This document shows, one piece after another, positions 2,680 through 27,493 of a DNA stretch of 64,000 bases. The position numbers and the translations under genes are program-made. This DNA is from an uncultured Anaerolineales bacterium (GTDB lineage Bacteria; Chloroflexota; Anaerolineae; Anaerolineales; UBA6663), in contig CALFZO010000139.1 in assembly GCA_937952305.1 (NCBI GenBank), positions 36,355 to 100,354 on the forward strand. Direction: 5' to 3'. Under the pieces are notes generated by a model. It was not told the origin of the DNA. It saw only the letters and a program-made list of their open reading frames with translations, and searched no databases. Numbering within the stretch: the stretch's first letter is position 1; each line of letters begins with the position of its first letter.

Positions 2680-3774
2680 TCAGGCGCCAAAGCGGCGATA
2701 CCGCTCGACGACAGCGGCCATGGCGAACAGATTGTCGTCCGGCGTGCCGTGGTCCATGTTGATGCAGCAGATGCCGGCGAGTTGCAGAGGGCCGGCCGCC
2801 TGCAGCAGGCGTTCGGTGTCGGCGGCAATCTCGGCCGGCGTGCACTGTAACATCCGGACCGGGCTCAAGCGCAGATTCAAGAACGCGTCCGGCAGCAACT
2901 CGCGGCAGCGGGCCACGTCCGACCCCCAGCCGACGTCGTAAAAGCTGGCCGGCAGCTGCGCGTACTCAGCCGCGATGCGATGCAGGTTGTCGCCGCAGTG
3001 GTGGATCCCGAACGGGGTCAAGCGCTGGGCGAGGACTTGCTCGACCGGGAACTGCAGCGCGCGGTAACTGCGCGGTGAGATCATCTGCACCGAACAGTTG
3101 GCGTGCAGGAACGGCGTTGGCGTCAGCCGGGCCGCCATGCGGTTGACCGAGATCGAATAGCTGCCGGTGCGGGAGTGGAGGTAGCTGGCCACATCGCCGA
3201 TCAGCTCGGCGATGAGTTCGAGCAGCCGCCGGACCCGGCCGGGCGCCTGGTAGAAATCGGCGAACATGTCCTGACCGTAAAGGTGGTAGGCCGCGTTCAG
3301 CAGACCGTCGGTGTTCAGGTCGCCAACCAGGTAACCGTGCTCGGCCTCGAGCGCGTCCATCTGGCGGATGAGCTCGCGCATGGGCCAGCGCGCCCGGAAG
3401 TCTGGTTTCTCCAGGGCCTCGATTTCGGCCGGCGAAAGCTGGACGGGCTCGGGCTGCGGCGCCGCGTCCGCCTCAAAGCGGATGCGCGCGCCGAGGAGGG
3501 CCGGGATGACGAAGCCGCCGGCGACGTGCAGGGAGCCGATGACCGGCCGCGGCTGCGGGGCGGCCTCGCCCAGACCCAACTGCCCGTAGCGCTCGTGCAG
3601 GACGCGCCGCATCGTCACGTCATTGGCGATGCGGGCGGCCGGATCCAGGTAAAAGCCCTCGCCAAAGTCGAGGCCGGCGGCGTGATGCCACCAGTTCGGG
3701 TTGAAGACCAGCTCCAGCGGCAGGAACTGGTCCGGTGTGAGCGCTGTCACAGGCGCCGCCAGCGGCGCGCTCAC
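2680..3774 (-). CDS. URO-D/MtaA-superfamily protein, paralog 1 (putative corrinoid-dependent methyltransferase)
   Basis: About 360 aa, the length of a URO-D-like TIM barrel. H-H-C-G sits at 2992-3003 and further Cys residues follow (GICCINMDHG). The start overlaps the gnd stop (ATGA). Confidence 0.5.
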   Translation of the reverse strand: MSAPLAAPVTALTPDQFLPLELVFNPNWWHHAAGLDFGEGFYLDPAARIANDVTMRRVLHERYGQLGLGEAAPQPRPVIGSLHVAGGFVIPALLGARIRFEADAAPQPEPVQLSPAEIEALEKPDFRARWPMRELIRQMDALEAEHGYLVGDLNTDGLLNAAYHLYGQDMFADFYQAPGRVRRLLELIAELIGDVASYLHSRTGSYSISVNRMAARLTPTPFLHANCSVQMISPRSYRALQFPVEQVLAQRLTPFGIHHCGDNLHRIAAEYAQLPASFYDVGWGSDVARCRELLPDAFLNLRLSPVRMLQCTPAEIAADTERLLQAAGPLQLAGICCINMDHGTPDDNLFAMAAVVERYRRFGA

Positions 3775-5717
3775 GCGCTGTAACTGGAGGCGGTCACCGA
3801 ACCGCCGAGGCCGGTCCAGTTCGTGTGGAAGAACTGGCCGCGCGGCTGGTCGACGCGCTCATACGTATGCGCGCCGAAGTAGTCGCGCTGGGCCTGGATC
3901 AGGCTGGCCGGCAGCCAGCCCGCGCGATACCCATCGAAGAAAGTCAGGGCGCTGGCCATCGCCGGCACGGGCACCCCGTTCTCCACGGCCCGCGCCACCA
4001 CGCGCCGCCAGGCCGGCTGAACGGCCTGGATCTCGTGGCGGAAATACGGCGCCAGCAACAGATTGCTCAGATGCGGGTCGGCCGCGTAGGCCTCCTTGAT
4101 CTTGCCCAAAAAGGCCGAGCGGATGATGCAGCCGCCGCGCCACATCAGGGCGATGCCGCCATAGTTCAGATTCCAGCCGTGCTCACGCGCCACGGCGCGC
4201 ATGAGCATGAAGCCCTGCGCGTAAGAGATGATCTTGGCCGCGTACAGCGCGTCGCGGATCGCCGGGAGCCAGGCCGCGCGGTCTGTGGCGACGGAGACGG
4301 CCGGCCCGGACAGGATCTTTTCGGCCGCGACGCGTTCGTCTTTAAGCGCCGAGAGCGAGCGCGCCAGCACCGCCTCGCTGATCAAGGTCAATGGCATGCC
4401 GGCTTCCAGCGCCGCCATCACCGTCCAGCGGCCGGTGCCCTTCTGCCCAGCCACGTCCAGGATCTTGCCCACCAGCGGCTGGCCATCCGCATCCTGGACC
4501 GCCAGGATCTGGCCCGTGATCTCGATCAGATACGAGTTGAGCGGGCCGCGATCCCACTCCGCGAAGACCGGCGCGGCCTCCGCGTCCGTCAGCCCCACCA
4601 GCGTCCGCAGAAGCTGATAGGCCTCGGCGATGAGCTGCATGTCGCCGTACTCGATGCCGTTGTGCACCATCTTAACAAAGTGCCCGGCGCCGTTTTCGCC
4701 CACCCACTCACAGCAGGGCGTGCCATCCTCGACCTTGGCGGCGATGGCTTGGAAGATGTCCTTGACGTGCGGCCAGGCCGCCGGTGAGCCGCCCGGCATG
4801 ATGGACGGCCCGTGGCGGGCGCCCTCCTCGCCGCCGGAAACGCCGGTGCCGACATAGAGCAGCCCTTTGGACTCCAGATAGGCAGCGCGGCGGAGGCTGT
4901 CCTCGTAATTCGAGTTGCCGCCGTCGATGACGATATCGCCCGGCTCCAGGAGCGGCAGCAGCAGCTCGATGAAGTCGTCCACGGGCGGGCCGGCTTTGAC
5001 CATGAGCATCACGCGCCGCGGCCGCTTGAGCAAGCCCACCAACTCCTCCAGCGAGTGCGCGCCCACCACCGCCGTGCCCCGGGCGGGCCCCTGGAGGAAC
5101 TCGTCCACCTTGGCCACGGAGCGGTTGAACACGGCGATTTTGAAGCCGTGATCGTTCATGTTGAGGACCAGGTTCTGGCCCATCACGGCCAGGCCGATCA
5201 GCCCGAGGTCACACTGTGTCATGGGAGATTCTTTCTGCTCGATGAGGGTTCCAAGAATACGCTCAACCAACTGCTCCGGCGGCGCAGCGATGTCCAGCGT
5301 GAGGGCGTCGGCGGGTGCCTCCAGCGTCGCGAACTGGCTGGTCAGCATCTCAGGCTTCATGTAATGGCCCTGGCGAGACTGCAGGCGCCCCAGGATCAGG
5401 TCATAGCTGCCGCGCAGGTGGACAAAGTTTACCTCCGAACTGACACGCAACCGTTCCCGATATTGGTGCTTGAGGGCCGAGCAGGCCAGCACCGCCGAGC
5501 GGCCGGCCGCGCTCTCGCGGCGCAACAGGTCCGCCAGGGTGCTGAGCCAGCCGGCGCGATCCTCGTCTGTGAGCGGGACGCCGCGCCCCATTTTGGCTTT
5601 GTTTTCAGGCGGGTGAAAGTCGTCGCCGTCGTAGAACGGCCAGCCCAGCCGTTCGGCCAGCCTGCGGCCGATGGTGGTCTTGCCGCAGCCGGACACGCCC
5701 ATGACGATCACGATCAC
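3771..5717 (-). CDS. gnd: Gluconokinase fused in frame to 6-phosphogluconate dehydrogenase (decarboxylating)
   Basis: Residues 1-165 resemble GntK (VMGVSGCGKTTIG...FYDGDDFHPPENKAKMGRGVPLTDEDRAGWL). Residues 166-648 resemble Gnd (LGLIGLAVMGQNLVLNMNDHGF...). There is no stop codon between the two parts. An internal ATG lies at 5222. Confidence 0.85.
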   Translation of the reverse strand: MIVIVMGVSGCGKTTIGRRLAERLGWPFYDGDDFHPPENKAKMGRGVPLTDEDRAGWLSTLADLLRRESAAGRSAVLACSALKHQYRERLRVSSEVNFVHLRGSYDLILGRLQSRQGHYMKPEMLTSQFATLEAPADALTLDIAAPPEQLVERILGTLIEQKESPMTQCDLGLIGLAVMGQNLVLNMNDHGFKIAVFNRSVAKVDEFLQGPARGTAVVGAHSLEELVGLLKRPRRVMLMVKAGPPVDDFIELLLPLLEPGDIVIDGGNSNYEDSLRRAAYLESKGLLYVGTGVSGGEEGARHGPSIMPGGSPAAWPHVKDIFQAIAAKVEDGTPCCEWVGENGAGHFVKMVHNGIEYGDMQLIAEAYQLLRTLVGLTDAEAAPVFAEWDRGPLNSYLIEITGQILAVQDADGQPLVGKILDVAGQKGTGRWTVMAALEAGMPLTLISEAVLARSLSALKDERVAAEKILSGPAVSVATDRAAWLPAIRDALYAAKIISYAQGFMLMRAVAREHGWNLNYGGIALMWRGGCIIRSAFLGKIKEAYAADPHLSNLLLAPYFRHEIQAVQPAWRRVVARAVENGVPVPAMASALTFFDGYRAGWLPASLIQAQRDYFGAHTYERVDQPRGQFFHTNWTGLGGSVTASSYSA

Positions 5718-6991
5718 GACCGGCCGCCTTCCGGCGCTCCCGGGACCAGCGGCGTTCGCAGCCGGTAGAGGAACTCGCCCGCGCGCGGCACCACCAGGGT
5801 CTCCGGATCGGCCTCGGCCAGCCAGCGCGCCGGATCGAGGGCGGCTGGGTCGCGATAGCCGAGGTTCACGGCGCGACAGACCGCCTCCGGGATGCCGGTG
5901 GCGAGCGTCACCTGGATCCGCGGCGTCTCGATCCCGCTCGCGGCGTCATACGCGCCAATGCCCCGCAAGTGGGTGGAATGCGCCAGCACGCCCCAGGGGA
6001 TGTGCTTGAAGCGGTCCCATTGGTGGACAAAGTAATCCCGGACATGATAGCCCACCTGGCGGATCAGTGCGCCGTGGGTGACGCTGATCTCGCGGACATG
6101 CGGCGCATAGATGATCACCTCCCCGCCGTCGGCCACCACCGGCTCCAGCTTATACATCCCCTTCGCGCCCACCCAGATCTCGTCGTACATTTCCGGCAAG
6201 ACCGAGAGGACGCGCCGGTAGGGGCGCTCGACGTAGCGCACATGCAGCTCGGCGGAGAGGTCCGCCGCGGCGCGCCAGGCCGTCTCGGGCGCCCCGAAAA
6301 ACAGCCCCGCCACGCCGTCGCTGTGCGCGTCACCGGAGACGATGACACTGCACAGGGCCCGGCGTGTGCGCGGGATCATGGCCGCCGCCCGGTCGATCAC
6401 GCGGCGCACCGGCGTCTCCGCCAGGCCGATGAGGGCGTAGGACGTGATCAGGGCGCCCAGCCAGTGGGTGAAGTCGATGATGTCGGCGCCGGCGATGCCG
6501 GGGAAGAAGTATTTGTTGCCGCCGCTGAAGCCGACGACCTCATGCGGAAAGACCGGGCCGCAGACGAGCAGTTGATCGTAGTCCAGGATGCGGCGGTTGA
6601 GGCGCACCGGCACATCCTGGCGCAGCCGTCCCTGGCTGATCTCGGCGATCTCGGCGGCCGGGATCACGCCCAGGCTGAGCAAGGCCTGCGGATCATTCCA
6701 GGCATGGTTGAACAGGCCGATGTCCGGATACTGGGCGGCCTTCGTCTCGGCCGTCAGCCCCACCAGCCGCAGCAGGGCCGCCTCGCTCAGCGGCGGGTGC
6801 GTGCCCAGGGCGACGATGAAATCCAGCTGCCGCACCCGCGGCTGGAGGTGCCGGACCAGCAGGCGAAAGAACAGCGGCAACGGCATCGTCCGCGTGTGGT
6901 CGGGGATGATCACCAGCACGCGGCCGCCGTCGGGCCGCATCTCGTCCACGCCGCCGGCGATGATCGCCTCAATCTGAGCGTCAGTCAACAT
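5714..6991 (-). CDS. LarA-like nickel-pincer (NPN) dependent 2-hydroxyacid racemase/epimerase
   Basis: DUF2088/LarA-like N-terminus (RVLVIIPDHTRTMPLP) and an H-x9-K-x15-H signature (PHEVVGFSGGNKYFFPGIAGADIIDFTH, 6464-6544). I chose the start at MLTDAQ (6991). The ORF-track start at 7309 would overlap the upstream SDR gene. Confidence 0.65.
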   Translation of the reverse strand: MLTDAQIEAIIAGGVDEMRPDGGRVLVIIPDHTRTMPLPLFFRLLVRHLQPRVRQLDFIVALGTHPPLSEAALLRLVGLTAETKAAQYPDIGLFNHAWNDPQALLSLGVIPAAEIAEISQGRLRQDVPVRLNRRILDYDQLLVCGPVFPHEVVGFSGGNKYFFPGIAGADIIDFTHWLGALITSYALIGLAETPVRRVIDRAAAMIPRTRRALCSVIVSGDAHSDGVAGLFFGAPETAWRAAADLSAELHVRYVERPYRRVLSVLPEMYDEIWVGAKGMYKLEPVVADGGEVIIYAPHVREISVTHGALIRQVGYHVRDYFVHQWDRFKHIPWGVLAHSTHLRGIGAYDAASGIETPRIQVTLATGIPEAVCRAVNLGYRDPAALDPARWLAEADPETLVVPRAGEFLYRLRTPLVPGAPEGGRS

Positions 6992-7020
6992 GGGTCCAGT
7001 CCATTTCCTGGGCGGCAGGG

Positions 7021-7854
7021 CTACACCCCGCTGAAGGCCGCGAAGCCGCCGTCGACGGGCACGACGACGCCGGTGACAAAGGCCGACGCCGGTGAGAGCA
7101 GCCAGAGCACGGCTCCCAATAAGTCCTCGGGCTGACCGAAGCGGCCCAGCGGCGTATGGGTCAGGATCACTTCGCCGCGCGGCGTCAGAGCACCGGTGTC
7201 TTTGTCCGTGAGCAGGAAGCGGTTCTGCTCGGTCAGGAAAAAGCCTGGCGCGATGGCGTTGACGCGGATGCGCGGCGAGTACTCCTGGGCCATGTGCACG
7301 GCCAGCCACTGGGTGAAATTGCTCACCCCGGCCTTGGCCGCGGAGTAGGCCGGGATGCGCGTCAGCGGGCGGAAGGCGTTCATGGACGAGATGTTCAGGA
7401 TGACCCCCTCGCCCTGCTGGGCCAGGCGCCGCCCCACGATCTGGCTGGGCAGGATCGTGCCCAGCAAGTTTAGCTCAAACACAAACCGCAGCGCCTCAGC
7501 CGGCAAATCGAAGAACTTCCGGTCCGGTCCGGTGGTGGCGCCAGGCTGGTTGCCGCCGGCGGCGTTGATCAGGGCGTCGATGCGCCCGAACTCCTGCTCA
7601 ACCGCGGCGACAGCGGTTTCCAGGACGGCGGCCTGCAAGACGTCGCCATAGACCACAATGGCGCGGCCCCGGCTGGGCGGGAAGCGATGGATCTGGCGTT
7701 CGGCCAGGGCCTGGTCCCGGTCTAGAATGGCGACGTTGGCCCCGCAGCCTACCAGGGCACAGGCGATCTCGCCGCCCAAAACGCCGGCCCCGCCCGTGAC
7801 GAGGACCGTGCGGCCGGTGAAGTCGTACATTTGGGTGAGGTCTTGTAAGTTCAT
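7021..7854 (-). CDS. uxuB: SDR-family D-mannonate oxidoreductase / fructuronate reductase-like
   Basis: VLVTGGAGVLGGEIACALVGCGANVAILDR matches the TGGxGxLG pattern I associate with SDR-type UxuB. The gene sits between uxaE and the LarA-like gene. Confidence 0.55.
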   Translation of the reverse strand: MNLQDLTQMYDFTGRTVLVTGGAGVLGGEIACALVGCGANVAILDRDQALAERQIHRFPPSRGRAIVVYGDVLQAAVLETAVAAVEQEFGRIDALINAAGGNQPGATTGPDRKFFDLPAEALRFVFELNLLGTILPSQIVGRRLAQQGEGVILNISSMNAFRPLTRIPAYSAAKAGVSNFTQWLAVHMAQEYSPRIRVNAIAPGFFLTEQNRFLLTDKDTGALTPRGEVILTHTPLGRFGQPEDLLGAVLWLLSPASAFVTGVVVPVDGGFAAFSGV

Positions 7855-7904: not shown

Positions 7905-9398
7905 TTATACCGACGCGGCGAAAGGCTGCAGGTGGCGGATAAAGTGCCGTTCCAGGGCGGCATAGTGCTCGGTCTCGTGCGCGCGCAACGCGGCCAGAAT
8001 CTCCGGGCCGAACTGCGCCAGGGCGGAGCCGAAGGTGACATGCAGGACCTCGCGCGCATCGAATTGGTCGAGCAGCGAAGGCAGCTCGGAGTCTGGCCGG
8101 GCCGCGATGGCGGGCACGCGGCTTAACTCAGCCGAGACGTGATAACTGGCGCGGTCCTGCGGGTAGCGCTCAATGGCCAGGACCGCGATGGCGCGGAACA
8201 GGGCCGGCTGGACGCGCGCCAGGGTTCGCAAGGCCTCCAGATAACTCGTGCCGGCGGTCTTGAGATGCACCCGGCCCCGCGCGGCGGCCATGATCAGCGG
8301 GTAGACGCTGAACTTATCTGAACCCGAGTGCAGGCTGAGCTTGTAAGGCCCCAGCGCGCGCGCCACCGCCGCATGCCCGGCCAGGTCGGCCGCCAGCGCC
8401 TTCAGATCCCCCAGATAGTCCACGCCCTTTTCAAAGCGCCCCACGTAACGCGGGGCCAGGCTGACCCAGCGCACCCCCAGCCGCTTCAGTTCGCTGGCGA
8501 TCAGAACATGCTCCCCATGCGTGGTCGGGGTCTCGGTCTCGTCCACCGAGACTTCCAGCTCAAAGGGCACGCCCTGGGCAGCCACATGGCGATACAAGCG
8601 GGCCACATGCGCGATGGCGTTCCCATACTTGGCCGCCGCCCGCCAGACCGCCTCGACCTCCAGCGTCAGGCGGCGATCCTCGAGCTCGAAGGTCTGGCCG
8701 GCGTAGCGCCGCTGCCAGGCCTCCGGCGAACTCTCCAGGGCCGCCCAGTCCAGCGCCTGCACCTTGGCCCGCACCGTCTCCGGGGCGGCGGAATCCGCGG
8801 CGGAATCGACGTGGGCGCCGGGATCGATGGTGTAGAACGTGAAACCGGCGGCCGCGCAGGCTTCCACATCGGCGGGCGTTTTGAGGTGGTCGGCATCGGC
8901 GCCCAGCGGACCGCGCCAGCCGCTCTCCAAAGCGCCGAAAGTCGCGTCGCGCATCACGTCCTGCGGCGTGCGGCGCGTGCGCGTCATCTCGCGAATAGAC
9001 TGCTGCGCGAAGATGGGGGCGACGGGCCGGGCGCCCGGCGTGGCGGCGACGCTGCGGAAGGCGCGGACGTGTCCGGGCGTCGCCAGGCCGAGCCGGTCCC
9101 CGCATCCGGCCGAGGTCGCCAGGCCCAGCGGCGCCGGGCGCAGGTGAGGCAGCGCCGCGGACAGCGCACGCGCGTTGGCGTCGGTGAGCGGGCAGCGCAC
9201 GAGAGTCAGCTCTGCGCCAAAGTCTGCCCCCTCGCCCGCAAACGCCATTAATCGGGCCTGGCCCGCGGGCGCCAGGACGAGCAGCTGCTTGTCCGACCCC
9301 GCGCGCGTCAGGGCGAAGGCGACGCCGTCGGCCTCGGCCAGCGAGTCGACGTAGAGCGTTTCACCAAAAGCTTCGTGCAGCCGGGCGGTCAGGTCCAT
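7905..9398 (-). CDS. uxaE: Tagaturonate/fructuronate epimerase-like protein
   Basis: About 497 aa. The segments GCGDRLGLATPGHVRAF, PIFAQQSIREMTRTRRTPQDV and GADADHLK resemble the UxaE family. It lies directly downstream of uxaC. I chose the start at MDLTARL (9398). Confidence 0.55.
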   Translation of the reverse strand: MDLTARLHEAFGETLYVDSLAEADGVAFALTRAGSDKQLLVLAPAGQARLMAFAGEGADFGAELTLVRCPLTDANARALSAALPHLRPAPLGLATSAGCGDRLGLATPGHVRAFRSVAATPGARPVAPIFAQQSIREMTRTRRTPQDVMRDATFGALESGWRGPLGADADHLKTPADVEACAAAGFTFYTIDPGAHVDSAADSAAPETVRAKVQALDWAALESSPEAWQRRYAGQTFELEDRRLTLEVEAVWRAAAKYGNAIAHVARLYRHVAAQGVPFELEVSVDETETPTTHGEHVLIASELKRLGVRWVSLAPRYVGRFEKGVDYLGDLKALAADLAGHAAVARALGPYKLSLHSGSDKFSVYPLIMAAARGRVHLKTAGTSYLEALRTLARVQPALFRAIAVLAIERYPQDRASYHVSAELSRVPAIAARPDSELPSLLDQFDAREVLHVTFGSALAQFGPEILAALRAHETEHYAALERHFIRHLQPFAASV

Positions 9399-18587: not shown

Positions 18588-19624
18588 GCTTTGGCCTCCG
18601 CGGTTTGATACAGAAAGCAGCTCACCGACTGGTCTGGCCCGACCGCCTGGAGTTCGGGCGTGGCGGCGTCACACCGGCCGGGCATGCTTTGCGGGCAGCG
18701 CGGGTGGAACGGGCAGCCGCGCGGCCGGTTAAAGGGGTGCGGGATGGAGCCGCTGATCGTGGGCAAGGGCTCGCGCGGCGTCGACTGGACGGTCGGGATC
18801 GAGCGCAGCAAAGCCTGGGTGTACGGGTGCTTGGGCGCATGGAAGATCGCGTTCACCGGCCCCTGCTCCATCACCAGACCGAGGTACATCACCAGCACGT
18901 CGTGGGCCACCTGCGCGATCACGCCCAGATCGTGGGTGATGAAGATGATGGCGGCGTCGCGTTCCTGCTGGAGCTGCCGCAGGAGGCGCAGCACCTGGGC
19001 CTGCGTGGTGACGTCCACGGCCGTGGTGGGCTCATCGGCGATGAGGAGGCGCGGGTTGCAAGACAGCGCCATCGCGATGATCGCGCGTTGGCGCAGACCG
19101 CCGCTCAGCTGCCAGGAGTACGCGTCCAGGCGCTGCTCGGGCATGGGCATCCCGACGCTCTTGAAAAGCTCGACGGCCAGCCGGCGGCCCTCCCGGGGGC
19201 TCACCGCCTGGTGCAGCCGGATGGCCTCGACGATCTGGTCCCCGATGGTGTGCACGGGGCTGAAGGCCGCCATCGGCTCCTGGGGGATGAGGGCCATCTC
19301 GGCGCCGCGCAGGCCGCGCATGACGCTCCCGTTGGGGTCCAGCCGCGTCACGTCCACCACCTCTTCTTGCGTCGAACCCGGCCCGCCCTGCGGCTTGCGC
19401 CGCCACAGGATTTCCCCGGCCACGATGCGGCCCGGCGCCTCGATCAGCCTGAGCACGGCCTTCATCGCCACGCTTTTGCCGCAGCCGCTCTCGCCGACGA
19501 TGCCGAAGACCTTGCCGGGATAAACGTCGAAACTGACCCCCTCGACGGCGCGCACCACGCCCTCGTCCAAGGCGAACTGGACCTTAAGATTGCGGACCGA
19601 AAGGAGCGGCGCGGGCGCATTCAT
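18584..19624 (-). CDS. Opp/Dpp-type ABC transporter ATP-binding protein (OppD/DppD-like)
   Basis: Walker [10 protein letters not shown], signature LSGGLRQR, Walker B LIADEP, and a C-terminal four-Cys segment. Confidence 0.85.
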
Positions 19625-19634
19625 AGGGCAGGCC

Positions 19635-21772: not shown

Positions 21773-21794
21773 GCGGCACACTCCTCGAGGCCGG

Positions 21795-21826
21795 GGAGGC
21801 CCCCGCCGGCAGGCGCGGGGGCCTCC
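21795..21826 (-). other. Intercistronic GC-rich stem-loop after the binding-protein gene
   Basis: GGAGGCCCCCGC-N8-GCGGGGGCCTCC is a perfect 12-bp inverted repeat, lying between the SBP stop (21843) and the permease start. Confidence 0.6.
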
Positions 21827-21842
21827 GCTCAGGCGCTAACGG

Positions 21843-23861
21843 TTACGGCTGCTCGAAGAACCACTGCTCCGGCCGGGCGTTGCCGGGCGTGCGCAGCGGC
21901 CAGTCGTTGCCAAGTTGCGTGGGGATGTTGTGGAGGCTGTTGTTGACCACCACCACGCCCTGCACCATCGGGGACAGGCCCAGGATGCTGACCTCATAGA
22001 CCTGGTCCACCCAGTGGGTGTAGAGCTCTTTGGCCAGTTCCACCTGCTCGTCCGGGCTGGCGGACTTGGCTGAGTCGATGATGTCGACGATCTTCTGCAG
22101 CTCGGCGGTGGGCGCCATGCCTTCCTTGCCGCCGGAGTTGTACCAGGTCCGGGTCAGCGGGGCCAAAGCCAGGCCGGGGCTGACGCGCGGGTCATACTTG
22201 GGCGCGCCCGTGAACGGGAAGCCGCCCGTGTCCTGGTTCCAGATCTCGGTCTGGATGTCATTGCTCTCGCGCATCTGGAAGTGCAGCGCGCGCTCGCGGA
22301 CCTGGACGATGGTCTTGATGCCGACCGCTTCCCAGTTCTGGGCGACCAGCTGGGCCACATCCGGCCACGGGCCGAAGGCCGGCACCACCGAGATTTCGAT
22401 CGTCACGGCCTTGTCGGTGCCGGGATACAGGCGGTAGCCCTCCGCGTCCTTCGCGGTCAACCCGATGCCGTCCAGCAGAGCGTTGGCCTTATCCGGATCG
22501 TACTCGGTGTACTTGTGGGCCACGTCGTCGCCGGGGTAGTACGGGTGCCAGGGCGCGGCCACGGACTGGCGCGGTTCGCCCAAGCCCAGGAAAGCCGCCT
22601 CCTGGATTTCACTGCGATTGGTGGCGTAGGACAGCGCGATGCGGAAATCGCGCGTGCGCATCAGGTTGCCCAGGTCCTCGTCCTTGACGTAGGTCTGGTT
22701 GAACATGACCACCGCATCGGCGCCGCCAAAGCCCGGCCAGGTGATGATGTGGTACTTGCCCTGCTGCTCGCTTTCCTTGAGCACCGGGTAGTTCATCAGG
22801 TTCATGTGGCGGTCTTGCATGTCCAGCTCGCCCGCGATGCCGGCCAGGTTGAGGGCCTGGGCATCGGCGAAGAACGTGAAGCGGAGCTCGTCGATGTAGG
22901 GCAGCTGGTTGCCGGCCGTGTCCACGGCGATGAAGTACGGGTTGCGCTTGAGCGTGAAGATCTGGTCGCTGATGCGGGTCTCAGACACCCAGGCCGCCAT
23001 GGTCGGCCGGTCCGGGTTCTCAAATGGGGCGTTCTTGCTGGCGAACAGCTCGACCCAGGTCTTGAACTGCGCCTCGGCCACGAGCTTGTCGAGATCGGCC
23101 TGGGGCGTGAAATTGGGGTGGAACTGGGCGAGGTAGTGGCCGGGCAGGAACGGCGCGAAGGTGCGGTCGCCGCCGTCCTTGTTGGCCAGCTCGTACAGGA
23201 ACAAGCTGTTCGGCTCGTTGTAGGTGAAGCGGACGGTGTACGCGTCCACCTTCTCAACCTTGGCCACCGACCCGTCGGCGTTCTTCATCCACTTGGGCAG
23301 CGCCGGGGTGATGTCCGCGTTGAGCAGGACGTTGTCGTACCACCACAGGATGTCATCGGCCGTGAACGGCGCGCCGTCGGACCACTTGGCGCCTTCGCGC
23401 AGCAGGATGGTCCAGACTTTGTAGTCAGCCGAGCTTTCCCAGCCCAGAGCGATCTTGGGCTCGACGGTGCTGCCGTCCGGCGAGAAGCGGACCAGCGCGT
23501 CGTACATCACCCGGACGTAGTTGTTGTAGTCCGAAGGGCCGGTGAAGCCGCGGCGCCAGACGCCGCCGTATTGGCCGACCTCTTCGAACGGCTCGATGAC
23601 GAGGGGCTCGACGGGCAGGCGCTCCGCGACCGGAGGCAGCGTGCCGGCCGCGACCAACTCGGCCAGCATGGGGGCTTCGCTGTAGGCGGGGGCGGCGACC
23701 TCAGTGTCGGCCGGGGCGGCGGTGGGCTGAGGCGCCTGGGTGTCCGCCGGAGCCGCGGTCGGCTGGGGGGCCTGCGTGGCGGCCGGCTGGGCCGTCGGGG
23801 TGGCGCAGGCGCTTACGATCAGAGCGAGGACTGTCAGGACATAGAGCAGCTGGCGTTTCAT
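21843..23861 (-). CDS. ABC transporter substrate-binding lipoprotein, family 5 (Opp/Dpp type)
   Basis: Lipoprotein signal MKRQLLYVLTVLALIVSAC, a Pro/Ala/Thr/Gln linker, then a family-5 SBP-like body of about 670 aa. GAGGAG RBS precedes the start. The ORF-track start at 23978 is an extension. Confidence 0.8.
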   Translation of the reverse strand: MKRQLLYVLTVLALIVSACATPTAQPAATQAPQPTAAPADTQAPQPTAAPADTEVAAPAYSEAPMLAELVAAGTLPPVAERLPVEPLVIEPFEEVGQYGGVWRRGFTGPSDYNNYVRVMYDALVRFSPDGSTVEPKIALGWESSADYKVWTILLREGAKWSDGAPFTADDILWWYDNVLLNADITPALPKWMKNADGSVAKVEKVDAYTVRFTYNEPNSLFLYELANKDGGDRTFAPFLPGHYLAQFHPNFTPQADLDKLVAEAQFKTWVELFASKNAPFENPDRPTMAAWVSETRISDQIFTLKRNPYFIAVDTAGNQLPYIDELRFTFFADAQALNLAGIAGELDMQDRHMNLMNYPVLKESEQQGKYHIITWPGFGGADAVVMFNQTYVKDEDLGNLMRTRDFRIALSYATNRSEIQEAAFLGLGEPRQSVAAPWHPYYPGDDVAHKYTEYDPDKANALLDGIGLTAKDAEGYRLYPGTDKAVTIEISVVPAFGPWPDVAQLVAQNWEAVGIKTIVQVRERALHFQMRESNDIQTEIWNQDTGGFPFTGAPKYDPRVSPGLALAPLTRTWYNSGGKEGMAPTAELQKIVDIIDSAKSASPDEQVELAKELYTHWVDQVYEVSILGLSPMVQGVVVVNNSLHNIPTQLGNDWPLRTPGNARPEQWFFEQP
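23706..23777 (-). repeat. Two tandem 36-nt units encoding the TQAPQPTAAPAD linker repeat
   Basis: The direct repeat is visible in both DNA and protein (TQAPQPTAAPAD twice), just after the lipobox Cys of the SBP. Confidence 0.7.
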
Positions 23862-23944: not shown

Positions 23945-24382
23945 TTAAGCCGGCGGTTGGACTTGATCGAAATCCCAATCGTTCTGGACGCAGACGGCCC
24001 GGACGTGCTCAGCCCAGGTCGGCTCGAGAGCCGGCCGCCCGCCGACGAAGCAGTCCACGCACAGGTAGCGCAGGGTCGCCTCGCCCTGGGCTTGGATGCG
24101 ATGCCAGACGCCGGGCGGGACCCGGACCAGATCACCCGCCTGGACCGGCAGAGGCTGGACCGGTTCGGCGATCTCCAGCACGCCGCGGCCCTCCAGGATG
24201 TAGAAGACCTGTTCCGTGTCCGGGTGCTGGTGGCGGGGCGGCGCCTCGCCCGGGGCCAGCACCACAAAGAAAGCCTCCGCCGTGGCGGCCTCGGCCCGGT
24301 CCAGGATCAGGTCGTTGACGTGGGTTGGAAAGCGATAACGGCGGGCCGCCGCCCCGGGGAAGACGTAGCGGGTCTCAGGCAT
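23945..24382 (-). CDS. Cupin-domain protein
   Basis: 145 aa with the cupin metal motif PPRHQHPDTEQVFYILEGRG ... VPPGVWHRI. Confidence 0.7.
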   Translation of the reverse strand: MPETRYVFPGAAARRYRFPTHVNDLILDRAEAATAEAFFVVLAPGEAPPRHQHPDTEQVFYILEGRGVLEIAEPVQPLPVQAGDLVRVPPGVWHRIQAQGEATLRYLCVDCFVGGRPALEPTWAEHVRAVCVQNDWDFDQVQPPA

Positions 24383-25403
24383 GGCGGGCTTCCTGCGCGA
24401 CGCGGACGAGGGCGTCCAGGGAGGCCGCTGGCGTGTCCGGGCTGACGCCGCCGCCGGCCGAGAGGACCAGCCGCCGGTCGTCGGTCTTCTGGCGGCATTC
24501 CCGCGCCCAGGCTTCCACTTGCGCCGGCTGGCCGCGCGCCATCACATCCAGCGGCGGCACATTCCCCATGAGGGTCTTGGTCGGCATCTGAGCCGCCACT
24601 GTGGCGATGTCCTGGGTGTGGCTGAAGTTGAAGACCTCGAAGGGGAGCGTGCTGAACGGCGTCACCAGGTGCGGGCAGGGCGTGTCGTTGTGGTAGACGC
24701 GGATCAGGCCCTCAAAAGCCTCGAACAGGCGCGTGAAGTGCGACCGGGCCTGGGTCTCAAACATCTTGGGCGAGATCAGGCCGGCCAGGTCGTCCAGCAC
24801 CAGGATCCCCTGCGGCTCACGCAGCGTCTCCAACTGGGCGCGCAGCCAGTGGATGCAGAGCGTGGTCAGGTTCGTCAGCAGGCGCTCCATCTCAGCTGGG
24901 TGCGTCTTGAGCGCCATCATCAAGTCCGTGATGCCCAGCAGCCAGCCGGCCACGGCCAGCGGCCCGCGCGCTGCCACCATGTGGACGCTCACGCCTTCGG
25001 CGGCCAGCCGCGCGACGGCATCCGAGTAGCGGCTGAGGACGAGCGGCATCAGGCCGTGCTCACGCGGGTCCGGCACCGGCAGTTCCAGCAGCGCGCCCAG
25101 ACCGCCGGGCACCGGCTCAAGGGAGGGCGGCTGTTTGGGATGCCAGAGCACGCGGGCCCCATAAGCCGACGGCTCGGCGGCCATGCCGTATTCCACCCAG
25201 AAACCCGGGATCCAGGCCACGTCCGGAAAGCGGCTCAGCAGGCCGAGGTTGATCCGCAGCCATTCGTCATTCCGCGCGAAGTAATCGACTGTGTTCAGGC
25301 CGGCGTAGCCGGGCAGCCAGGGGCTGTCCACGATCAGGGCCACTGGCGGCTGGGGGAGGGCCTCCCCGCGCGCCGCACAGACGAAGCGTTGCCAGGGGGT
25401 CAT
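24375..25403 (-). CDS. URO-D/MtaA-superfamily protein, paralog 5
   Basis: About 342 aa with URO-D-like barrel length and N-terminus (MTPWQRFVCAARGEALPQPPVAL). It has YHND at the H-x-C position. The start overlaps the LacI stop (ATGA). Confidence 0.5.
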   Translation of the reverse strand: MTPWQRFVCAARGEALPQPPVALIVDSPWLPGYAGLNTVDYFARNDEWLRINLGLLSRFPDVAWIPGFWVEYGMAAEPSAYGARVLWHPKQPPSLEPVPGGLGALLELPVPDPREHGLMPLVLSRYSDAVARLAAEGVSVHMVAARGPLAVAGWLLGITDLMMALKTHPAEMERLLTNLTTLCIHWLRAQLETLREPQGILVLDDLAGLISPKMFETQARSHFTRLFEAFEGLIRVYHNDTPCPHLVTPFSTLPFEVFNFSHTQDIATVAAQMPTKTLMGNVPPLDVMARGQPAQVEAWARECRQKTDDRRLVLSAGGGVSPDTPAASLDALVRVAQEARHA

Positions 25404-26443
25404 CCCGAATGTCCGCTGGGGGCCGGGCCGGTGGAGGCGCGGACGATGAGCGCGCTTTCCACCAGCGTGTAGCTCTCGTCCGGCGGCGCATCATCCTGCA
25501 GCATGCGCCGGAGCGTCTTCATCGCCAGGCGTCCGAGATGGTATTTGGGCTGGGAGATCGTGGTGAGCGGCGGATTGGCATGCGCGGCCATCGGAATATC
25601 ATCCGTGCCGATGACGGAGAGGTCCTCCGGAACGCGCACACCCTGGACGCGCGCCGCTTGCAGCGCGCCCAGGGCCATCAGATCGTTGTAGGCGATGACG
25701 GCGGTGGGGCGCTGCGAGACGGGCAGAGCCAGCAGCGCGCTCATCGCCTGAAAACCGCCGTCGACGCTGGGGAAGCCGCCGGGACAGAATTCCGCGGGCA
25801 GCGTCAGGCCCGCGTCCTTCAGCGCTGCCTCGATGCCGAGGCGCCGGGCCTGGGAAGTCTCCGACGAACCGGGACCGGGCAGATAGGCGATGCGGGTGTG
25901 GTGCAGGTCCAGCAGATGGCAGGTGGTCCGGTACGTGGCGGCCTGAAAGTCAACCCCGACGCAAGCCACGTTGGACAGCCGCACGGAGCGGTTGATCATC
26001 ACCATCGGCGCCCGCAGGTAGCGGCGGATCCCGGCCAGGTCTTTGGTCGCCAGGATGCGCGAGCCGAGCACGATGACGCCCAGGACCTGCTGGCTGGCCA
26101 GCCGGCGCAGGAAGCGTTCCTCCCGCTGGGGGTTTTCCATGGTGTCCAGCAGGATCGGCATGAACTCGTCAATACCGATCTCATCCTGCACGCCGCGCAC
26201 AACTTCGGCGAAATATGGGTTGAGTATGTCCGGAATGAGCAGCGCGATCAGGCCCTGCCGCGCGGCTGAGGGGGCGCGCGGCGTCAGGGTGTAGCCAAGC
26301 TCGGCGACAGACGCCAGCACGCGAACGCGCACCTCCTCGCTGACCGGGGTCGTGCTGTTTAGGACCCGGGAGACCGTGGACGCTGAGACACCGGCCCGAC
26401 GGGCCACATCCCCGATCTTTGGACGGATTGTCTTTGTGCTCAT
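25400..26443 (-). CDS. LacI-family transcriptional regulator
   Basis: N-terminal HTH IGDVARRAGVSASTVSRVLN plus a periplasmic-binding-protein-like sugar domain. It is the first cistron of the minus-strand run. Confidence 0.9.
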   Translation of the reverse strand: MSTKTIRPKIGDVARRAGVSASTVSRVLNSTTPVSEEVRVRVLASVAELGYTLTPRAPSAARQGLIALLIPDILNPYFAEVVRGVQDEIGIDEFMPILLDTMENPQREERFLRRLASQQVLGVIVLGSRILATKDLAGIRRYLRAPMVMINRSVRLSNVACVGVDFQAATYRTTCHLLDLHHTRIAYLPGPGSSETSQARRLGIEAALKDAGLTLPAEFCPGGFPSVDGGFQAMSALLALPVSQRPTAVIAYNDLMALGALQAARVQGVRVPEDLSVIGTDDIPMAAHANPPLTTISQPKYHLGRLAMKTLRRMLQDDAPPDESYTLVESALIVRASTGPAPSGHSG

Positions 26444-26556: not shown

Positions 26557-26570
26557 GTGACGTTTGTCAC
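26557..26570. promoter_or_regulatory. Inverted repeat GTGAC-N4-GTCAC in the divergent control region (weak operator candidate)
   Basis: Seen directly in the 180-bp AT-richer spacer between the LacI gene and the methyltransferase gene. It does not fit the classical CG-centred LacI operator well. Confidence 0.2.
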
Positions 26571-26623
26571 AATAGGATGGCCGCGGGCGCTCTCTACACT
26601 AATGCAACCCCAAGGAGATCTCG

Positions 26624-27493
26624 ATGGCCACAAACCTGACCACCCGCCTGACATTCAAGGGTCACACGGTCGAAATTAGCCGAGATCGGCCCGTCATTAT
26701 GATTGGGGAGCGCATCAACCCGACCGGACGCAAAGAGATGCTGCTGGCGTTGGAGGCTGGGGATTTTGAGGCCGTCCGCCGTGACGCTCTGGCCCAGGTG
26801 GAGGCGGGCGCGGCCGTCCTCGACGTGAACGCGGGCGTGCCGGGCGCCGACGAGCCGGCGCTCCTGGCACGCGTCCTGGAAACGACCATGGCCGCCGTGT
26901 CGGCGCCGCTGGCGATTGACACGGCCAACCCGGAGGCGTTAGAGGCCGCGCTTCGGCTTTATCCCGGCAAGGCGCTGGTGAATTCGGTCAACGGCGAGGC
27001 GCGCGCGCTCGAGACCGTGTTGCCCCTGGTAAAGGCGCATGGCGCGGCCGTCATCGGTCTCTGCATCGACGACGACGGGATTCCGCCGACGCCGGAGGCG
27101 CGCGTGAAGGTGGCCGAGAAGATCCTGAACCGGGCCGGCCAGCTCGGCCTGGCGGCGGAAGACGTTGTGATCGATCCCTTGGCGATGGCCCTCGCCGCGG
27201 ACAGCCGCGCGGCCAGGGTGACACTGCAGACGATTGAGCTGGTGGTGCGCGAGTTCGGCGTGAACGTGACGCTGGGAGCCAGCAACGTTTCCCACGGCCT
27301 GCCGGACCGCAAATACATCAACGCCGCCTTCATGGCGTTGGCCCTGCAGGCCGGTGTGACCTGCCCGATCACGAACCCGCTGATCCAGGAAGTGAGCGCC
27401 GCCGTGCTGGCCACCGATCTTTGCCTGGGCCGCGATCCGGACAGTCGCCGCTGGATCAAGGCTTATCGGCGGCGACAACCGAAGAAGGTCTGA
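26624..27493 (+). CDS. Methyltetrahydrofolate:corrinoid methyltransferase-like (pterin-binding domain, MeTr/MtvA type)
   Basis: Motifs of a DHPS-like pterin-binding barrel: IMIGERINPTGRK, LDVNAG, IDTANPEALEAAL, LVNSVNGE, SNVSHGLP. AAGGAGA RBS lies 5 nt upstream. Confidence 0.8.
   Translation: MATNLTTRLTFKGHTVEISRDRPVIMIGERINPTGRKEMLLALEAGDFEAVRRDALAQVEAGAAVLDVNAGVPGADEPALLARVLETTMAAVSAPLAIDTANPEALEAALRLYPGKALVNSVNGEARALETVLPLVKAHGAAVIGLCIDDDGIPPTPEARVKVAEKILNRAGQLGLAAEDVVIDPLAMALAADSRAARVTLQTIELVVREFGVNVTLGASNVSHGLPDRKYINAAFMALALQAGVTCPITNPLIQEVSAAVLATDLCLGRDPDSRRWIKAYRRRQPKKV

Follow-up and report, generated by a model that had tools for sequence, protein, structure and literature searches.

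Operon organisation and gene content

The 64 kb of DNA analysed here (the window), from an uncultured member of the Chloroflexi in sludge, raises the question of why the parts of a corrinoid methyl-transfer system should lie amongst genes for sugar breakdown, and whether, as the original prediction held, they demethylate sugars. All of the features named in that prediction were located through Pfam, NCBIfam and the positions of the open reading frames (Table 1). The operon spans 1621–26443 on the minus strand and comprises 22 genes over ~24.8 kb, with that of the LacI-family regulator first and that of a GFO/IDH/MocA oxidoreductase last. The proposal that the corrinoid module is operonic with, and coupled to, the sugar genes is right, since all 22 genes are co-oriented with spacings of −11 to +83 bp and overlap at 12 junctions, one of them the 4 bp between the LacI gene and U5. 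The same locus has been assembled independently from several sludge metagenomes and so is not an assembly artefact; the methyl-transfer parts are genuinely embedded within sugar catabolism.

Table 1. Positions of the operon genes and neighbouring features within the window.
Feature	Position	Strand	Basis or remark
GFO/IDH/MocA sugar oxidoreductase	1621–2649	-	Pfam
U1	2680–3774	-	Pfam URO-D, 35 bits
Gluconokinase + 6-phosphogluconate dehydrogenase fusion	3771–5717	-	single 648-aa ORF
LarA-like nickel-pincer enzyme, putative hexonate epimerase	5714–6991	-	Pfam Lar_N
SDR, D-mannonate oxidoreductase type (UxuB-like)	7021–7830	-	PRK08277, 351 bits (cut-off 281)
UxaE-family tagaturonate/fructuronate epimerase	7905–9398	-	Pfam UxaE, 450 bits
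UxaC glucuronate isomerase	9430–10833	-	PRK02925, 505 bits (cut-off 387)
U2, H-S-D variant	10854–12038	-	Pfam URO-D, 82 bits
NagB-like deaminase/isomerase, divergent	12035–12820	-	Pfam Glucosamine_iso, 102 bits
SGNH/GDSL esterase	12820–13443	-	Pfam Lipase_GDSL_2
NagA-type amidohydrolase	13433–14614	-	TIGR00221 nagA, 226.8 bits (cut-off 225.65)
Corrinoid protein (CP), base-off/His-on type, 213 aa	14611–15252	-	Pfam B12-binding, 99 bits; B12-binding_2 cap, 68.5 bits
U3, core paralog	15278–16408	-	Pfam URO-D, 41 bits
U4	16408–17577	-	Pfam URO-D, 61 bits
Opp/Dpp-type ABC importer, all parts	17574–23861	-	Pfam
Importer, two ATPases	17574–19624	-	Pfam
Importer, two permeases	19635–21772	-	Pfam
Importer, SBP_bac_5 binding protein	21843–23861	-	Pfam
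Small cupin protein	23945–24382	-	Pfam Cupin_2, 70 bits
U5, H-N-D variant at metal-site position	24375–25403	-	Pfam URO-D, 110 bits
LacI-family regulator	25400–26443	-	Pfam LacI, Peripla_BP_1/3
Palindrome GTGACGTTTGTCAC, possible operator	26557–26570	.	LacI/MeTr divergent intergenic region
Pterin-binding methyl-H4folate:corrinoid methyltransferase (MeTr)	26624–27493	+	Pfam Pterin_bind, 83 bits

Matches to Pfam and NCBIfam bear out the earlier assignments of UxaC, UxaE, a UxuB-type SDR, NagA, a NagB-like protein, an SGNH esterase, an Opp-type importer and LacI, with the NagB-like protein missing every NCBIfam nagB cut-off. The top NCBIfam match of the LarA-like enzyme is the model for a "nickel-dependent putative hexonate epimerase", at 176 bits and below the 500-bit cut-off. 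In the fused reading frame a GntK-type model scores 179 bits where 114 are required, and gnd 745 bits where 427 are. The cupin gene is kept adjoining U5 and UxaE in relatives. The palindrome GTGACGTTTGTCAC occurs as a single perfect copy in the window and is a possible operator, on weak evidence since at least two one-mismatch matches arose by chance in 11 of 100 shuffles.

The methyl-transfer proteins

CP has the full base-off/His-on cobalamin signature that had been ascribed to it, with both Pfam domains and the motifs DLHDIG (residues 100–105), SAL (at 147) and GG (at 178). Its top NCBIfam match, under the cut-offs, is to MtgC-type or methyltransferase-cognate corrinoid proteins. The gene starts 25 bp after U3 and overlaps that of NagA by 4 bp. 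The protein is 67–72% identical equally to copies beside homocysteine methyltransferase (HcyMT) and RACo or beside MtaB, and in sequence terms is a generic Anaerolineae corrinoid protein with no dedicated context-specific clade. The pterin-binding methyltransferase divergent from LacI is likewise as described, scoring 281 bits with NCBIfam PRK07535 (methyltetrahydrofolate:corrinoid/iron-sulfur protein methyltransferase; cut-off 259) in addition to the Pterin_bind match. Its homologs are found in CP-DUF1638-MTHFR-MeTr-RACo or MeTr-CP-MttB modules, which are catabolic methyl-to-folate units. Searches of the 64 kb with Pfam and tblastn found no RACo/RamA-type activase, as had been noted, nor a homocysteine-binding domain, MtaB or DUF1638.

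The five paralogs U1–U5 had been claimed as mutually divergent members of the URO-D/MtaA superfamily; all five exceed the Pfam URO-D cut-off (PF01208, 23.9 bits), with pairwise identities of 18–28%, and none comes near the curated NCBIfam cut-off for any methyltransferase family that has been characterised. Residues H258-x-C260...C337 are conserved in the U1 family (29 members) and H275-x-C277...C364 in the U4 family, so that U1 and U4 retain the H-x-C...C motif, which we take to be the arrangement that forms the zinc site in MtaA and MetE. The conserved residues in the U3 family are H277-S-C279 and D299. The AF2 model of U3 (pLDDT 95) gives as its top PDB fold match MtaA (4ay7; E 1.3e-10, TM 0.63/0.69), with URO-D ranking behind, and the U3 profile matched no solved structure when compared with PDB sequences.

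The Pfam family name might suggest uroporphyrinogen decarboxylase (HemE), or another enzyme of tetrapyrrole metabolism, as the identity of U1–U5; there is a weak fold likeness to URO-D structures, and U5 has a weak sequence match to the B. subtilis URO-D in the PDB (E 0.0036). Against this, four of the five give no match to the hemE equivalog model and U5 reaches just 40 of the 303 bits required, lower than the 75 bits of U5 with the methylcobalamin:CoM methyltransferase model, both scores being far under the cut-offs. The MRQAGR-type signature, the N-terminal mark of HemE, is absent from all five, Pfam found no other tetrapyrrole genes in the window, and haem synthesis gives no reason for five copies inside a sugar operon. 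None of the five is HemE, a role in tetrapyrrole synthesis being almost inconceivable, and the evidence supports a corrinoid methyl-transfer kit rather than haem biosynthesis.

Conservation in other genomes

Within each paralog family the orthologs are 60–79% identical across taxa, and those of U4 59–72% across Chloroflexota and Acidobacteriota. The paralogs co-occur as a fixed set in ~20 Chloroflexota species, with U5 orthologs heading the cluster in ~20 Chloroflexota loci; U2 travels with NagA and NagB, and U1 and U3 are paired in six phyla and fused in one protein (P0363). The suggestion that the five provide five substrate specificities does not fit well with this. Since they form separate conserved ortholog families retained as a set, with U1 and U3 fused, they look like distinct components or steps and not simply alternative specificities.

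U3 was surveyed at 63 loci in species-representative genomes, the relatives carrying it all being uncultured MAGs. At eight of the loci a CP gene is found no more than 10 kb from U3, leaving 55 without, and this is so at 3 of the 33 that have 5 kb or more on either side. MeTr is beside U genes in this window only and near U3 at none of the 63 loci, so that CP, MeTr and URO-D proteins are not conserved together elsewhere. CP is directly 3′ of U3 in six related species (L009, L011–L014 and L020), and in L013 the operon is compact, reading OppDF-U3-CP-U1-UxaC-SDR-LarA-Gnd. A protein seen on two contigs (P0488) joins a URO-D domain whose closest paralog is U3 to a corrinoid domain 50% identical to CP. 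In a different phylum, a Verrucomicrobial locus (L049) has HcyMT-DUF1638-RACo, CP and U1-like-U3 as direct neighbours, together with genes for a sugar ABC transporter and GH31; as HcyMT, RACo and CP are present there and a pterin-binding donor domain is absent, U1/U3 would be the obvious methyl source. The comparison of the six species, L049 and the P0488 fusion thus supports a link between the U1/U3 families and corrinoid proteins.

In each phylum examined U3 adjoins sugar or acid transporters and glycosidases, with a TRAP transporter at 10 of 12 loci in Clostridia and RhaT/RhaM, MFS, GH31/GH2/GH95 and UxaE-like genes in Verrucomicrobiota. U4 orthologs elsewhere lie beside MFS and GH28 or amid housekeeping genes, with no corrinoid gene. 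A four-paralog set is kept with NagA/NagB/UxaC in clusters that have no recognisable glycosidase. Sister clusters hold sulfatase, KduI and GlcNAc-2-epimerase-family genes, which point to acidic amino-sugar glycans more broadly; 4-O-methyl-glucuronate and the other substrates proposed remain a guess.

A candidate demethylation route and its alternatives

The corrinoid kit in a sugar operon, the conserved motifs, the MtaA-like U3 model, the U1/U3–CP links, the MeTr relatives in catabolic modules and the sugar genes around U3 speak for the predicted sugar demethylase. Against it count the lack of a conserved CP, MeTr and URO-D combination, the want of an activase in the window, U4 orthologs with no corrinoid gene nearby, the low scores of all five paralogs on methyltransferase models, the failure of the U3 profile to match a solved structure and the generic nature of CP; the reading of five specificities needs revising. 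Overall we lean, if only slightly, towards a sugar acid or oligosaccharide that is taken up in methylated form and demethylated by a corrinoid-dependent system. In the route that we infer, from methyl transfer and its direction to the substrate and the order of the pathway, the operon would be under LacI control, serve the catabolism of acidic and amino sugars brought in from outside and house a corrinoid-dependent methyl-transfer system. A decorated sugar acid or oligosaccharide would enter through the Opp-type ABC transporter and be bound by the URO-D/MtaA-superfamily enzymes. Of these, U3 and U1 would be the core pair; U2 is linked with NagA/NagB, whilst UxaE and the cupin are the partners of U4 and U5. 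The conserved His-x-Cys/Asp position would provide the metal site with which the enzymes transfer the O-methyl group to Co(I) of CP, and MeTr would pass it on from methyl-Co(III), with tetrahydrofolate as acceptor; HcyMT would use it in relatives to make methionine instead. One corrinoid protein shared by methionine synthesis and catabolic demethylation has a precedent (PMC12478193). The demethylated uronate would be converted to fructuronate by UxaC, to D-mannonate by the SDR and to D-gluconate by the LarA-like epimerase, and then through 6-phosphogluconate to ribulose-5-P by the fused GntK-Gnd, with amino-sugar parts processed by NagA and the NagB-like enzyme. The cobalt-reducing activase would have to be encoded elsewhere in the genome.

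The paralogs could instead perform a corrinoid-independent core step in sugar-acid or amino-sugar catabolism, as a new TIM-barrel glycosidase, an isomerase/epimerase, a decarboxylase or a MetE-like two-barrel thiol alkyltransferase. On that view CP and MeTr would have come from a generic one-carbon or split-methionine-synthase module lodged in the operon in one lineage. The many U3 loci with no CP nearby and the want of a context-specific CP clade agree with this, as do the CP orthologs of 67–69% identity adjoining homocysteine methyltransferase and RACo in L072 and L073 and a MeTr homolog (L077) within a complete HcyMT-MeTr-CP-RACo operon. Since the four-paralog clusters have no recognisable glycosidase, the paralogs could supply the core sugar step themselves, and U1 with U3, whether as a pair or fused in P0363, is reminiscent of the double-barrel fold of MetE (cf. 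PMC539065). The close packing of CP between U3 and NagA in a LacI-controlled catabolic operon would, however, be unexpected for a housekeeping methionine synthase subunit. No homocysteine-binding domain was found in the window, and the conserved U3–CP adjacency, the corrinoid fusion and the donor-less L049 locus also argue against it. We know of no glycosidase or isomerase in the URO-D superfamily. Neither activity is given for it in the superfamily list of PMC10418091. On this evidence a corrinoid-independent step seems unlikely, if worth serious consideration.

A role as classical corrinoid O-demethylases, acting on methoxylated aromatic acids of the plant wall or their glycosides or esters imported alongside uronates, is improbable. 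To our knowledge the characterised URO-D-type MT1 O-demethylases all act on aromatic methyl ethers, and rumen and gut Clostridia have the U3 and U1-like pair with TRAP carboxylate transporters and BD-FAE-type (feruloyl/acetyl esterase) alpha/beta-hydrolases, but these Clostridial proteins are just 40–44% identical to U3. Aromatic-ring catabolic genes are absent from the operon and from the 63 loci, the neighbours being sugar transporters, glycosidases, UxaC/UxaE, NagA/NagB, sulfatase and KduI, and in L013 U3-CP-U1 leads directly into the glucuronate route. The methyl flow might also be reversed, with MeTr loading CP from methyl-H4folate and MtaA-like U enzymes methylating a thiol or sugar in biosynthesis or detoxification. 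In MtaA and MetE, the H-x-C...C motif seen in U1 and U4 is used to move methyl groups onto thiolates. MeTr-type enzymes are moreover reversible, a bidirectional one having been described (PMC12478193). Yet the operon is wholly catabolic (importer, isomerases, kinase, dehydrogenase), acceptor-making genes are absent and the MeTr clade is tied to MTHFR and MttB demethylation modules, which makes reversed flow very improbable.

For the corrinoid-dependent demethylation of sugars, the reading we favour, the operon would be the best current genomic lead to an O2-free route. The published literature searched held no corrinoid-dependent sugar demethylase, in keeping with the original prediction, which knew of none. 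The sole carbohydrate demethylase found there is a P450 (PMC6292453), which is O2-dependent.

The operon and its five URO-D paralogs

The 22 minus-strand genes extending from the LacI regulator to a GFO/IDH/MocA oxidoreductase form one long operon, with intergenic gaps of -11 to +83 bp and 12 overlapping junctions. The first third comprises LacI, U5, a cupin, an SBP_bac_5 binding protein, two permeases and two ATPases; U4, U3, the corrinoid protein (CP), NagA, an SGNH esterase, a NagB-like protein and U2 make up the middle, and UxaC, UxaE, an SDR, a LarA-like protein, a fused GntK-Gnd, U1 and the oxidoreductase the end, where U1 to U5 denote the five paralogs of the URO-D/MtaA superfamily. The pterin-binding methyltransferase (MeTr) is divergent from LacI and convergent with glmS. 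The family assignments of the original prediction all held, with scores above the Pfam gathering thresholds, and curated cut-offs were passed by UxaC, the D-mannonate-oxidoreductase-type SDR, GntK and Gnd; NagA just passed its cut-off and the NagB-like protein was below it. As had been stated, there is no reductive activase of the RACo or RamA type in the 64 kb, judged by Pfam and by tblastn with a RACo query. Nor does the 64-kb window contain a homocysteine-binding S-methyl_trans domain, MtaB or DUF1638, and an Rfam scan of it revealed no cobalamin riboswitch or other RNA family. The window has a G+C content of ~69%, the identical locus was recovered in several bioreactor-sludge metagenome assemblies and its nearest relatives are in Thermoflexales/Anaerolineae MAGs.

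Features of the window and of the comparison loci (L and P numbers, other genomes or metagenomes), with conserved residues of the paralogs from family alignments
Feature	Location	Strand	Conserved residues or motifs
Operon	1621-26443	-	
U1	2680-3774	-	H258-x-C260 ... C337
GntK-Gnd fusion, 648 aa	3771-5717	-	
LarA-like protein	5714-6991	-	
SDR	7021-7830	-	
U2	10854-12038	-	H282 ... H369
CP, 213 aa	14611-15252	-	DLHDIG 100-105, SAL 147, GG 178
U3	15278-16408	-	H277-x-C279, D299
U4	16408-17577	-	H275-x-C277 ... C364
U5	24375-25403	-	H238-x-D240, C243, H262
Palindrome	26557-26570		
MeTr	26624-27493	+	
Cell-envelope cluster	36895-53058	-	
Signalling protein, 1012 aa	56056-59094	-	
U4 ortholog, Bryobacteraceae MAG	L005:10001-13753		
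Sister-cluster genes, Chloroflexota	L020:2612-4057, L026:11116-12537, L020:11190-12374, L039:2590-3423		
Verrucomicrobiia locus	L049:4778-16769		
CP with homocysteine methyltransferase and RACo	L072:10001-13382, L073:10001-14155		
CP with MtaB-like protein	L074:10001-12062		
MeTr-type modules, examples	L105:6625-10876, L107:6822-10879, L075:539-5129		
P0488, URO-D-corrinoid fusion	L155:2181-4088, L156:2179-4086		
P0363, U1-U3 fusion	L157:109-2283		

The UxaC, UxaE and SDR proteins pass their models, as would be expected for hexuronate catabolism of the Thermotoga type (UxaC/UxaE/UxuB), but the Ashwell set is incomplete. UxaC and the UxuB-type SDR are present, whereas the UxuA/UxaA dehydratase, KdgK and KdgA were not found in the operon with Pfam, and the LarA-like protein and GntK-Gnd take the place of the remainder. 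This combination of genes present and missing suggests a non-canonical uronate route, which would lead from mannonate through gluconate and 6-phosphogluconate to ribulose-5-P. The gluconokinase and 6-phosphogluconate dehydrogenase are fused in a single ORF, which accompanies the SDR and the LarA-like protein, a nickel-pincer 'putative hexonate epimerase'. In the divergent region between LacI and MeTr, ~50 bp upstream of the MeTr start, is the perfect palindrome GTGACGTTTGTCAC. It could be a shared operator co-regulating MeTr and the sugar operon, though as a single site it is not significant by itself.

Pairwise identity among U1-U5 is 18-28%. Each of the five scores above the Pfam URO-D gathering threshold, and none reaches a curated NCBIfam methyltransferase cut-off, the best scores on the mtaA_cmuA, MtaA and MtbA models being 27-75 bits against cut-offs of 235-600. 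U2-U4 match methyltransferase models only and U1 matches none. Relatives in Chloroflexota, Acidobacteriota and other phyla, annotated only as hypothetical or 'URO-D family', are 59-72% identical for U4 and 60-79% for U3, and each paralog is a tightly conserved ortholog family of its own. The U3 family is small, with 58 representatives at E<=1e-30 among 1.84 billion cluster representatives.

MtaA is both the top NCBIfam family for U2-U5 and the top solved fold match of the U3 AlphaFold model (pLDDT 95; 4ay7, TM 0.63/0.69), followed by URO-D structures. In contrast to true members of the MtaA/MtbA families, however, the paralogs score 5-10 times under the cut-offs, and the identity of U3 to its fold match is 12-13%. 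The model of U1, built from the paralog alignment, is moderate (pLDDT 70) and does not discriminate between URO-D and MetE folds, both of which it matched. Searching PDB chains by sequence gave no match for the U3 family profile or for U4, and two weak matches for U5.

One aligned histidine position is kept in all five paralogs. U1 and U4 carry an H-x-C ... C motif that, judged by its spacing, may be equivalent to the zinc site of MtaA and MetE. Unlike MtaA, U2 and U5 have H-x-D at this position and U3 does not have the third Cys; zinc ligand sets vary among the substrate-side methyltransferases (MT1) of O-demethylases. Many Trp, Tyr, Asp, Glu, Asn and Gln residues are conserved in the U3 family, and these may resemble those of sugar-binding sites.

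Paralog loci in other genomes

Scanning the U3 alignment against one genome per species (GTDB) gave 63 loci, all in MAGs of uncultured relatives, onto which all window proteins were mapped within flanks of 10 kb or less. Chloroflexota account for 33 and the rest are from Verrucomicrobiota, Acidobacteriota, Spirochaetota, Planctomycetota, Bacteroidota and rumen/gut Clostridia. A block of the form LacI-U5-UxaE-cupin-(U4)-U3-NagA-NagB-(GFO)-U2-U1-(UxaC-SDR-LarA), together with an Opp-type transporter, is common to ~20 Chloroflexota species. It follows that the paralogs are retained together, rather than being swapped as the alternative specificities that had been proposed for them. No glycoside hydrolase is found in these Chloroflexota operons. 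A sulfatase with an N-sulfoglucosamine-sulfohydrolase C-domain, a GlcNAc-2-epimerase-family protein and KduI are encoded in sister clusters of Chloroflexota, which suggests that the cluster family acts on glycosaminoglycan- or EPS-like glycans bearing sulfate or other decorations, with decorated acidic amino-sugar glycans as the theme.

Beyond Chloroflexota the core consists of U3 and a second URO-D protein (U1-like, or U2-like in Opitutaceae), adjoining uptake genes. In the Clostridia these are the TRAP genes DctPQM (10 of 12 loci), with BD-FAE-type esterases in some, while RhaT and RhaM, MFS and CUT1/CUT2 ABC binding proteins, GH31/GH2/GH95 enzymes and a UxaE-like gene are near the core in Verrucomicrobiota and others. 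A more distant U3 relative adjoins a CE4 deacetylase, an aminotransferase and a GFO oxidoreductase. U1 and U3 are also found fused in the 724-aa protein P0363 (identity 38% and 42%), which argues that the two act jointly. U4 orthologs in Acidobacteriota are beside MFS and GH28 genes or among housekeeping genes, with no CP. In a Bryobacteraceae MAG the U4 ortholog is divergent from MFS and GH28 and convergent with a B12-dependent diol dehydratase (large, medium and small subunits); the presence of another B12 enzyme beside a URO-D paralog may be coincidental and connected with the use of deoxy-sugars.

The corrinoid protein and MeTr

The CP matches PF02310 with 99 bits and its cap domain PF02607 with 68.5 bits. 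The original prediction had put forward co-occurrence of CP, MeTr and URO-D with uxaC/nagAB as a check, and the U3 loci give a mixed picture: a CP is within 10 kb of U3 in 8 of the 63 loci (3 of the 33 with 5 kb or more to either side; 7 of the 44 with 2 kb or more), and MeTr is near U genes only in the window. Seven of the eight CPs, from two phyla, directly adjoin U3 or U1, and in six species the CP comes immediately after U3. The full operon of L013 is OppDF-U3-CP-U1-UxaC-SDR-LarA-Gnd, so that U3, CP and U1 stand directly ahead of the glucuronate route. In L049, from a Verrucomicrobiia MAG (DATKNW010000069.1), an S-methyl_trans homocysteine methyltransferase, DUF1638, RACo and a CP on the opposite strand are followed by U1-like and U3 genes and then by a CUT2 sugar ABC transporter and GH31. 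From its gene content this would be a complete set of donor enzyme, carrier, acceptor enzyme and activase, and it appears to be a demethylation unit that would yield methionine and draw on a methyl donor derived from sugar. Since no pterin-binding domain is found in the L049 neighbourhood, U1/U3 would be the natural methyl source there.

A direct fusion of the two components is seen in P0488 (635 aa, on two contigs), where a URO-D domain, for which U3 is the nearest window relative (30% identity, E 3e-25), is joined to a corrinoid domain 50% identical to the window CP. The gene adjoins an SDR and a metallo-beta-lactamase-fold protein. By a rough estimate, fewer than 0.1 adjacent cases would be expected in ~40 independent loci given the few CP genes per genome, and the placement of CP next to U3/U1 in two phyla, in different arrangements, would thus be well beyond chance.

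A dedicated clade of U-linked CPs was not supported. Similarity of the window CP to CPs of other U clusters is no higher than to those beside homocysteine methyltransferase and RACo or beside MtaB (67-72% in each case), and it is a generic corrinoid protein. The Anaerolineae CPs of the latter two kinds are 67-69% identical to it. Two of them lie in the order CP - homocysteine methyltransferase - (228-aa ORF) - RACo, with no pterin-binding gene, and the third adjoins an MtaB-like methanol methyltransferase under a LacI regulator with an SBP_bac_5 protein. The window also illustrates that such a system may have its components dispersed, no activase being encoded within its 64 kb. In Ruegeria one CP serves both methionine synthesis and catabolic demethylation (PMC12478193).

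MeTr matches PF00809 with 83 bits and passes the NCBIfam model PRK07535 for methyl-H4folate:corrinoid methyltransferases (281 bits; cut-off 259). Almost all of 80 metagenomic loci with MeTr homologs (48-67% identity) have the arrangement CP - DUF1638 - (MTHFR C-terminal domain) - MTHFR - MeTr - RACo; the closest relative lies in MeTr-CP-MttB-CP-DUF1638 and one other locus is a full HcyMT-MeTr-CP-RACo operon, where HcyMT is homocysteine methyltransferase. DUF1638 seems regularly to accompany corrinoid methyltransferase systems. These neighbourhoods, in which MeTr homologs are paired with stand-alone CPs mostly in demethylation modules, argue that MeTr belongs to a clade moving methyl groups between cobalt and folate, the role first predicted for it. 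The MeTr-LacI-U5 adjacency recurs in none of the 80 loci of the metagenome scan and, as far as seen, its position beside this operon is unique to this lineage.

Relation to known systems and a candidate demethylation route

The Odm systems of Acetobacterium dehalogenans and Desulfitobacterium hafniense, Mtv of Moorella thermoacetica and Mto of Methermicoccus are anaerobic three- or four-component O-demethylases, made up of MT1, a corrinoid protein, an H4folate-side methyltransferase (MT2) and an activase. Like these, the window has a stand-alone capped CP, an adjoining URO-D-superfamily MT1 candidate and a pterin-binding MT2, to which L049 adds the RACo activase. Unlike them, it is set in carbohydrate uptake and catabolism rather than aromatic or C1 metabolism, and it has five MT1 candidates, in ortholog families of their own far under the curated methyltransferase cut-offs. 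Further differences are that U1 and U3 would act as a pair or fusion, that no activase is present and that the CP is usually not beside the MT1 candidates. With regard to MtaA, coenzyme M synthesis is not known from bacteria of these phyla. The system would work like the MT1/CP/MT2 O-demethylases and MtaABC-type systems, yet it is not classed as a member of either because the paralogs fall short of every curated methyltransferase model, an activase in cis is lacking and the MT1-CP linkage is inconsistent.

The CP and pterin-binding protein are separate, as in the split MetH/MtgBCD of Ruegeria (PMC12478193) and core methionine synthases (PMC7857596), and CP orthologs in relatives adjoin homocysteine methyltransferase and RACo as in split MetH. 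In contrast to split MetH/MtgBCD, the window has neither a homocysteine-binding domain nor RACo and its module is inside a sugar operon, and the methyl-donor enzyme would be of the URO-D rather than the MttB type of Ruegeria MtgBCD. The UroD superfamily includes O-, S- and halogen-demethylases, MetE and epoxide:CoM transferase (PMC10418091).

Of the possible mechanisms we lean, if only slightly, towards corrinoid-dependent demethylation, the chemistry of which is inferred. A decorated sugar acid or oligosaccharide would be imported and bound by U1 and U3, with U2, U4 and U5 acting on related substrates or positions, and its O-methyl group moved to Co(I)-CP. MeTr would restore Co(I) with formation of methyl-H4folate; in relatives methionine would be formed instead. 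The freed uronate would be taken by UxaC to fructuronate and on to mannonate, from which the LarA-like epimerase would produce gluconate for conversion to 6-phosphogluconate and ribulose-5-P, and amino-sugar moieties would be processed by NagA and the NagB-like enzyme. If one substrate had to be named for U1/U3, it would be a methylated hexuronate such as 4-O-methyl-glucuronate, a doubtful choice that draws on the L013 operon, on the TRAP (carboxylate) transporters of Clostridia and on the UxaE-like genes nearby in Verrucomicrobiota. In Opitutaceae, methylated deoxy-hexoses are suggested as the substrates by the RhaT/RhaM contexts.

The paralogs could also be viewed more widely, and here we are more tentative, stopping short of an even chance: U1 and U3, with U2, U4 and U5, would represent an unrecognised class of oxygen-independent, two-barrel carbohydrate O-demethylases, acting on methyl ethers of sugar acids and deoxy-sugars, passing the methyl group through a shared CP to tetrahydrofolate or methionine and occurring in six or more phyla (Chloroflexota, Verrucomicrobiota, Acidobacteriota, Spirochaetota, Planctomycetota and Bacillota). 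A bolder variant is that where no CP adjoins, U1 and U3 transfer the methyl group without cobalamin, like MetE.

The many loci with no CP and the missing glycosidase would fit a core sugar function independent of corrinoid, in which the CP and MeTr are a lodger one-carbon module, but the tight placement of the CP, the L049 locus and the URO-D-CP fusion all speak against this and make it rather unlikely. Classical aromatic O-demethylation draws all its support from the TRAP and feruloyl-esterase-type context in Clostridia, and we consider it improbable. A reversed flow of methyl groups would be a very improbable explanation. That the paralogs are HemE can be practically discounted: TIGR01464 gives 40 bits against 303 in U5 and no match for U1-U4, U5 scores higher on methylcobalamin:CoM methyltransferase models than on the hemE model (all far below cut-offs) and the MRQAGR-type motif, which we take to be the N-terminal signature of HemE, is missing from the paralogs.

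Polysaccharides of plants, algae and microbes contain O-methylated sugars, such as 4-O-methyl-glucuronate in xylans and gums, 2-O-methyl-fucose and 2-O-methyl-xylose in pectin and 6-O-methyl-galactose in porphyran, and the O-methyl group blocks ordinary sugar enzymes. A targeted full-text literature search found no described cobalamin-dependent sugar demethylase, in agreement with the original prediction, and no mention of uronate operons that contain URO-D genes; the only carbohydrate demethylase in the literature searched was the O2-dependent P450 acting on 6-O-methyl-D-galactose (PMC6292453). The role proposed here is similar, namely removal of an O-methyl group to enable sugar catabolism, although the protein family and chemistry are unrelated. 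Whereas the P450 uses O2-dependent hydroxylation and releases formaldehyde (PMC6292453), the window route would be oxygen-independent, with the methyl group passing to cobalt and then to folate. Resistance of methylated sugars to gut degradation and their accumulation in seawater have been reported (PMC6292453). If corrinoid-dependent demethylation is correct, an oxygen-independent B12-dependent route would fill the demethylase gap and explain consumption in anoxic habitats of methylated sugars now regarded as resistant. It would also tie polysaccharide breakdown to one-carbon/methionine metabolism and to the community B12 supply in digesters, rumen, sediments and soils, give a function to several conserved, unnamed protein families and provide enzymes for selective carbohydrate demethylation. 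Even if it fails, four to five conserved URO-D-fold enzymes central to a uronate/amino-sugar pathway would be new enzymology.

Elsewhere in the window, a large cell-envelope cluster includes two DUF2298 membrane proteins (884 and 1782 aa), two PMT_2 glycosyltransferase-like proteins (602 and 777 aa), an M14 carboxypeptidase, a class-I SAM methyltransferase and a GT4 glycosyltransferase. The signalling protein of the window combines an N-terminal 7TM histidine-kinase-type domain with PAS, GAF and GGDEF diguanylate cyclase domains.
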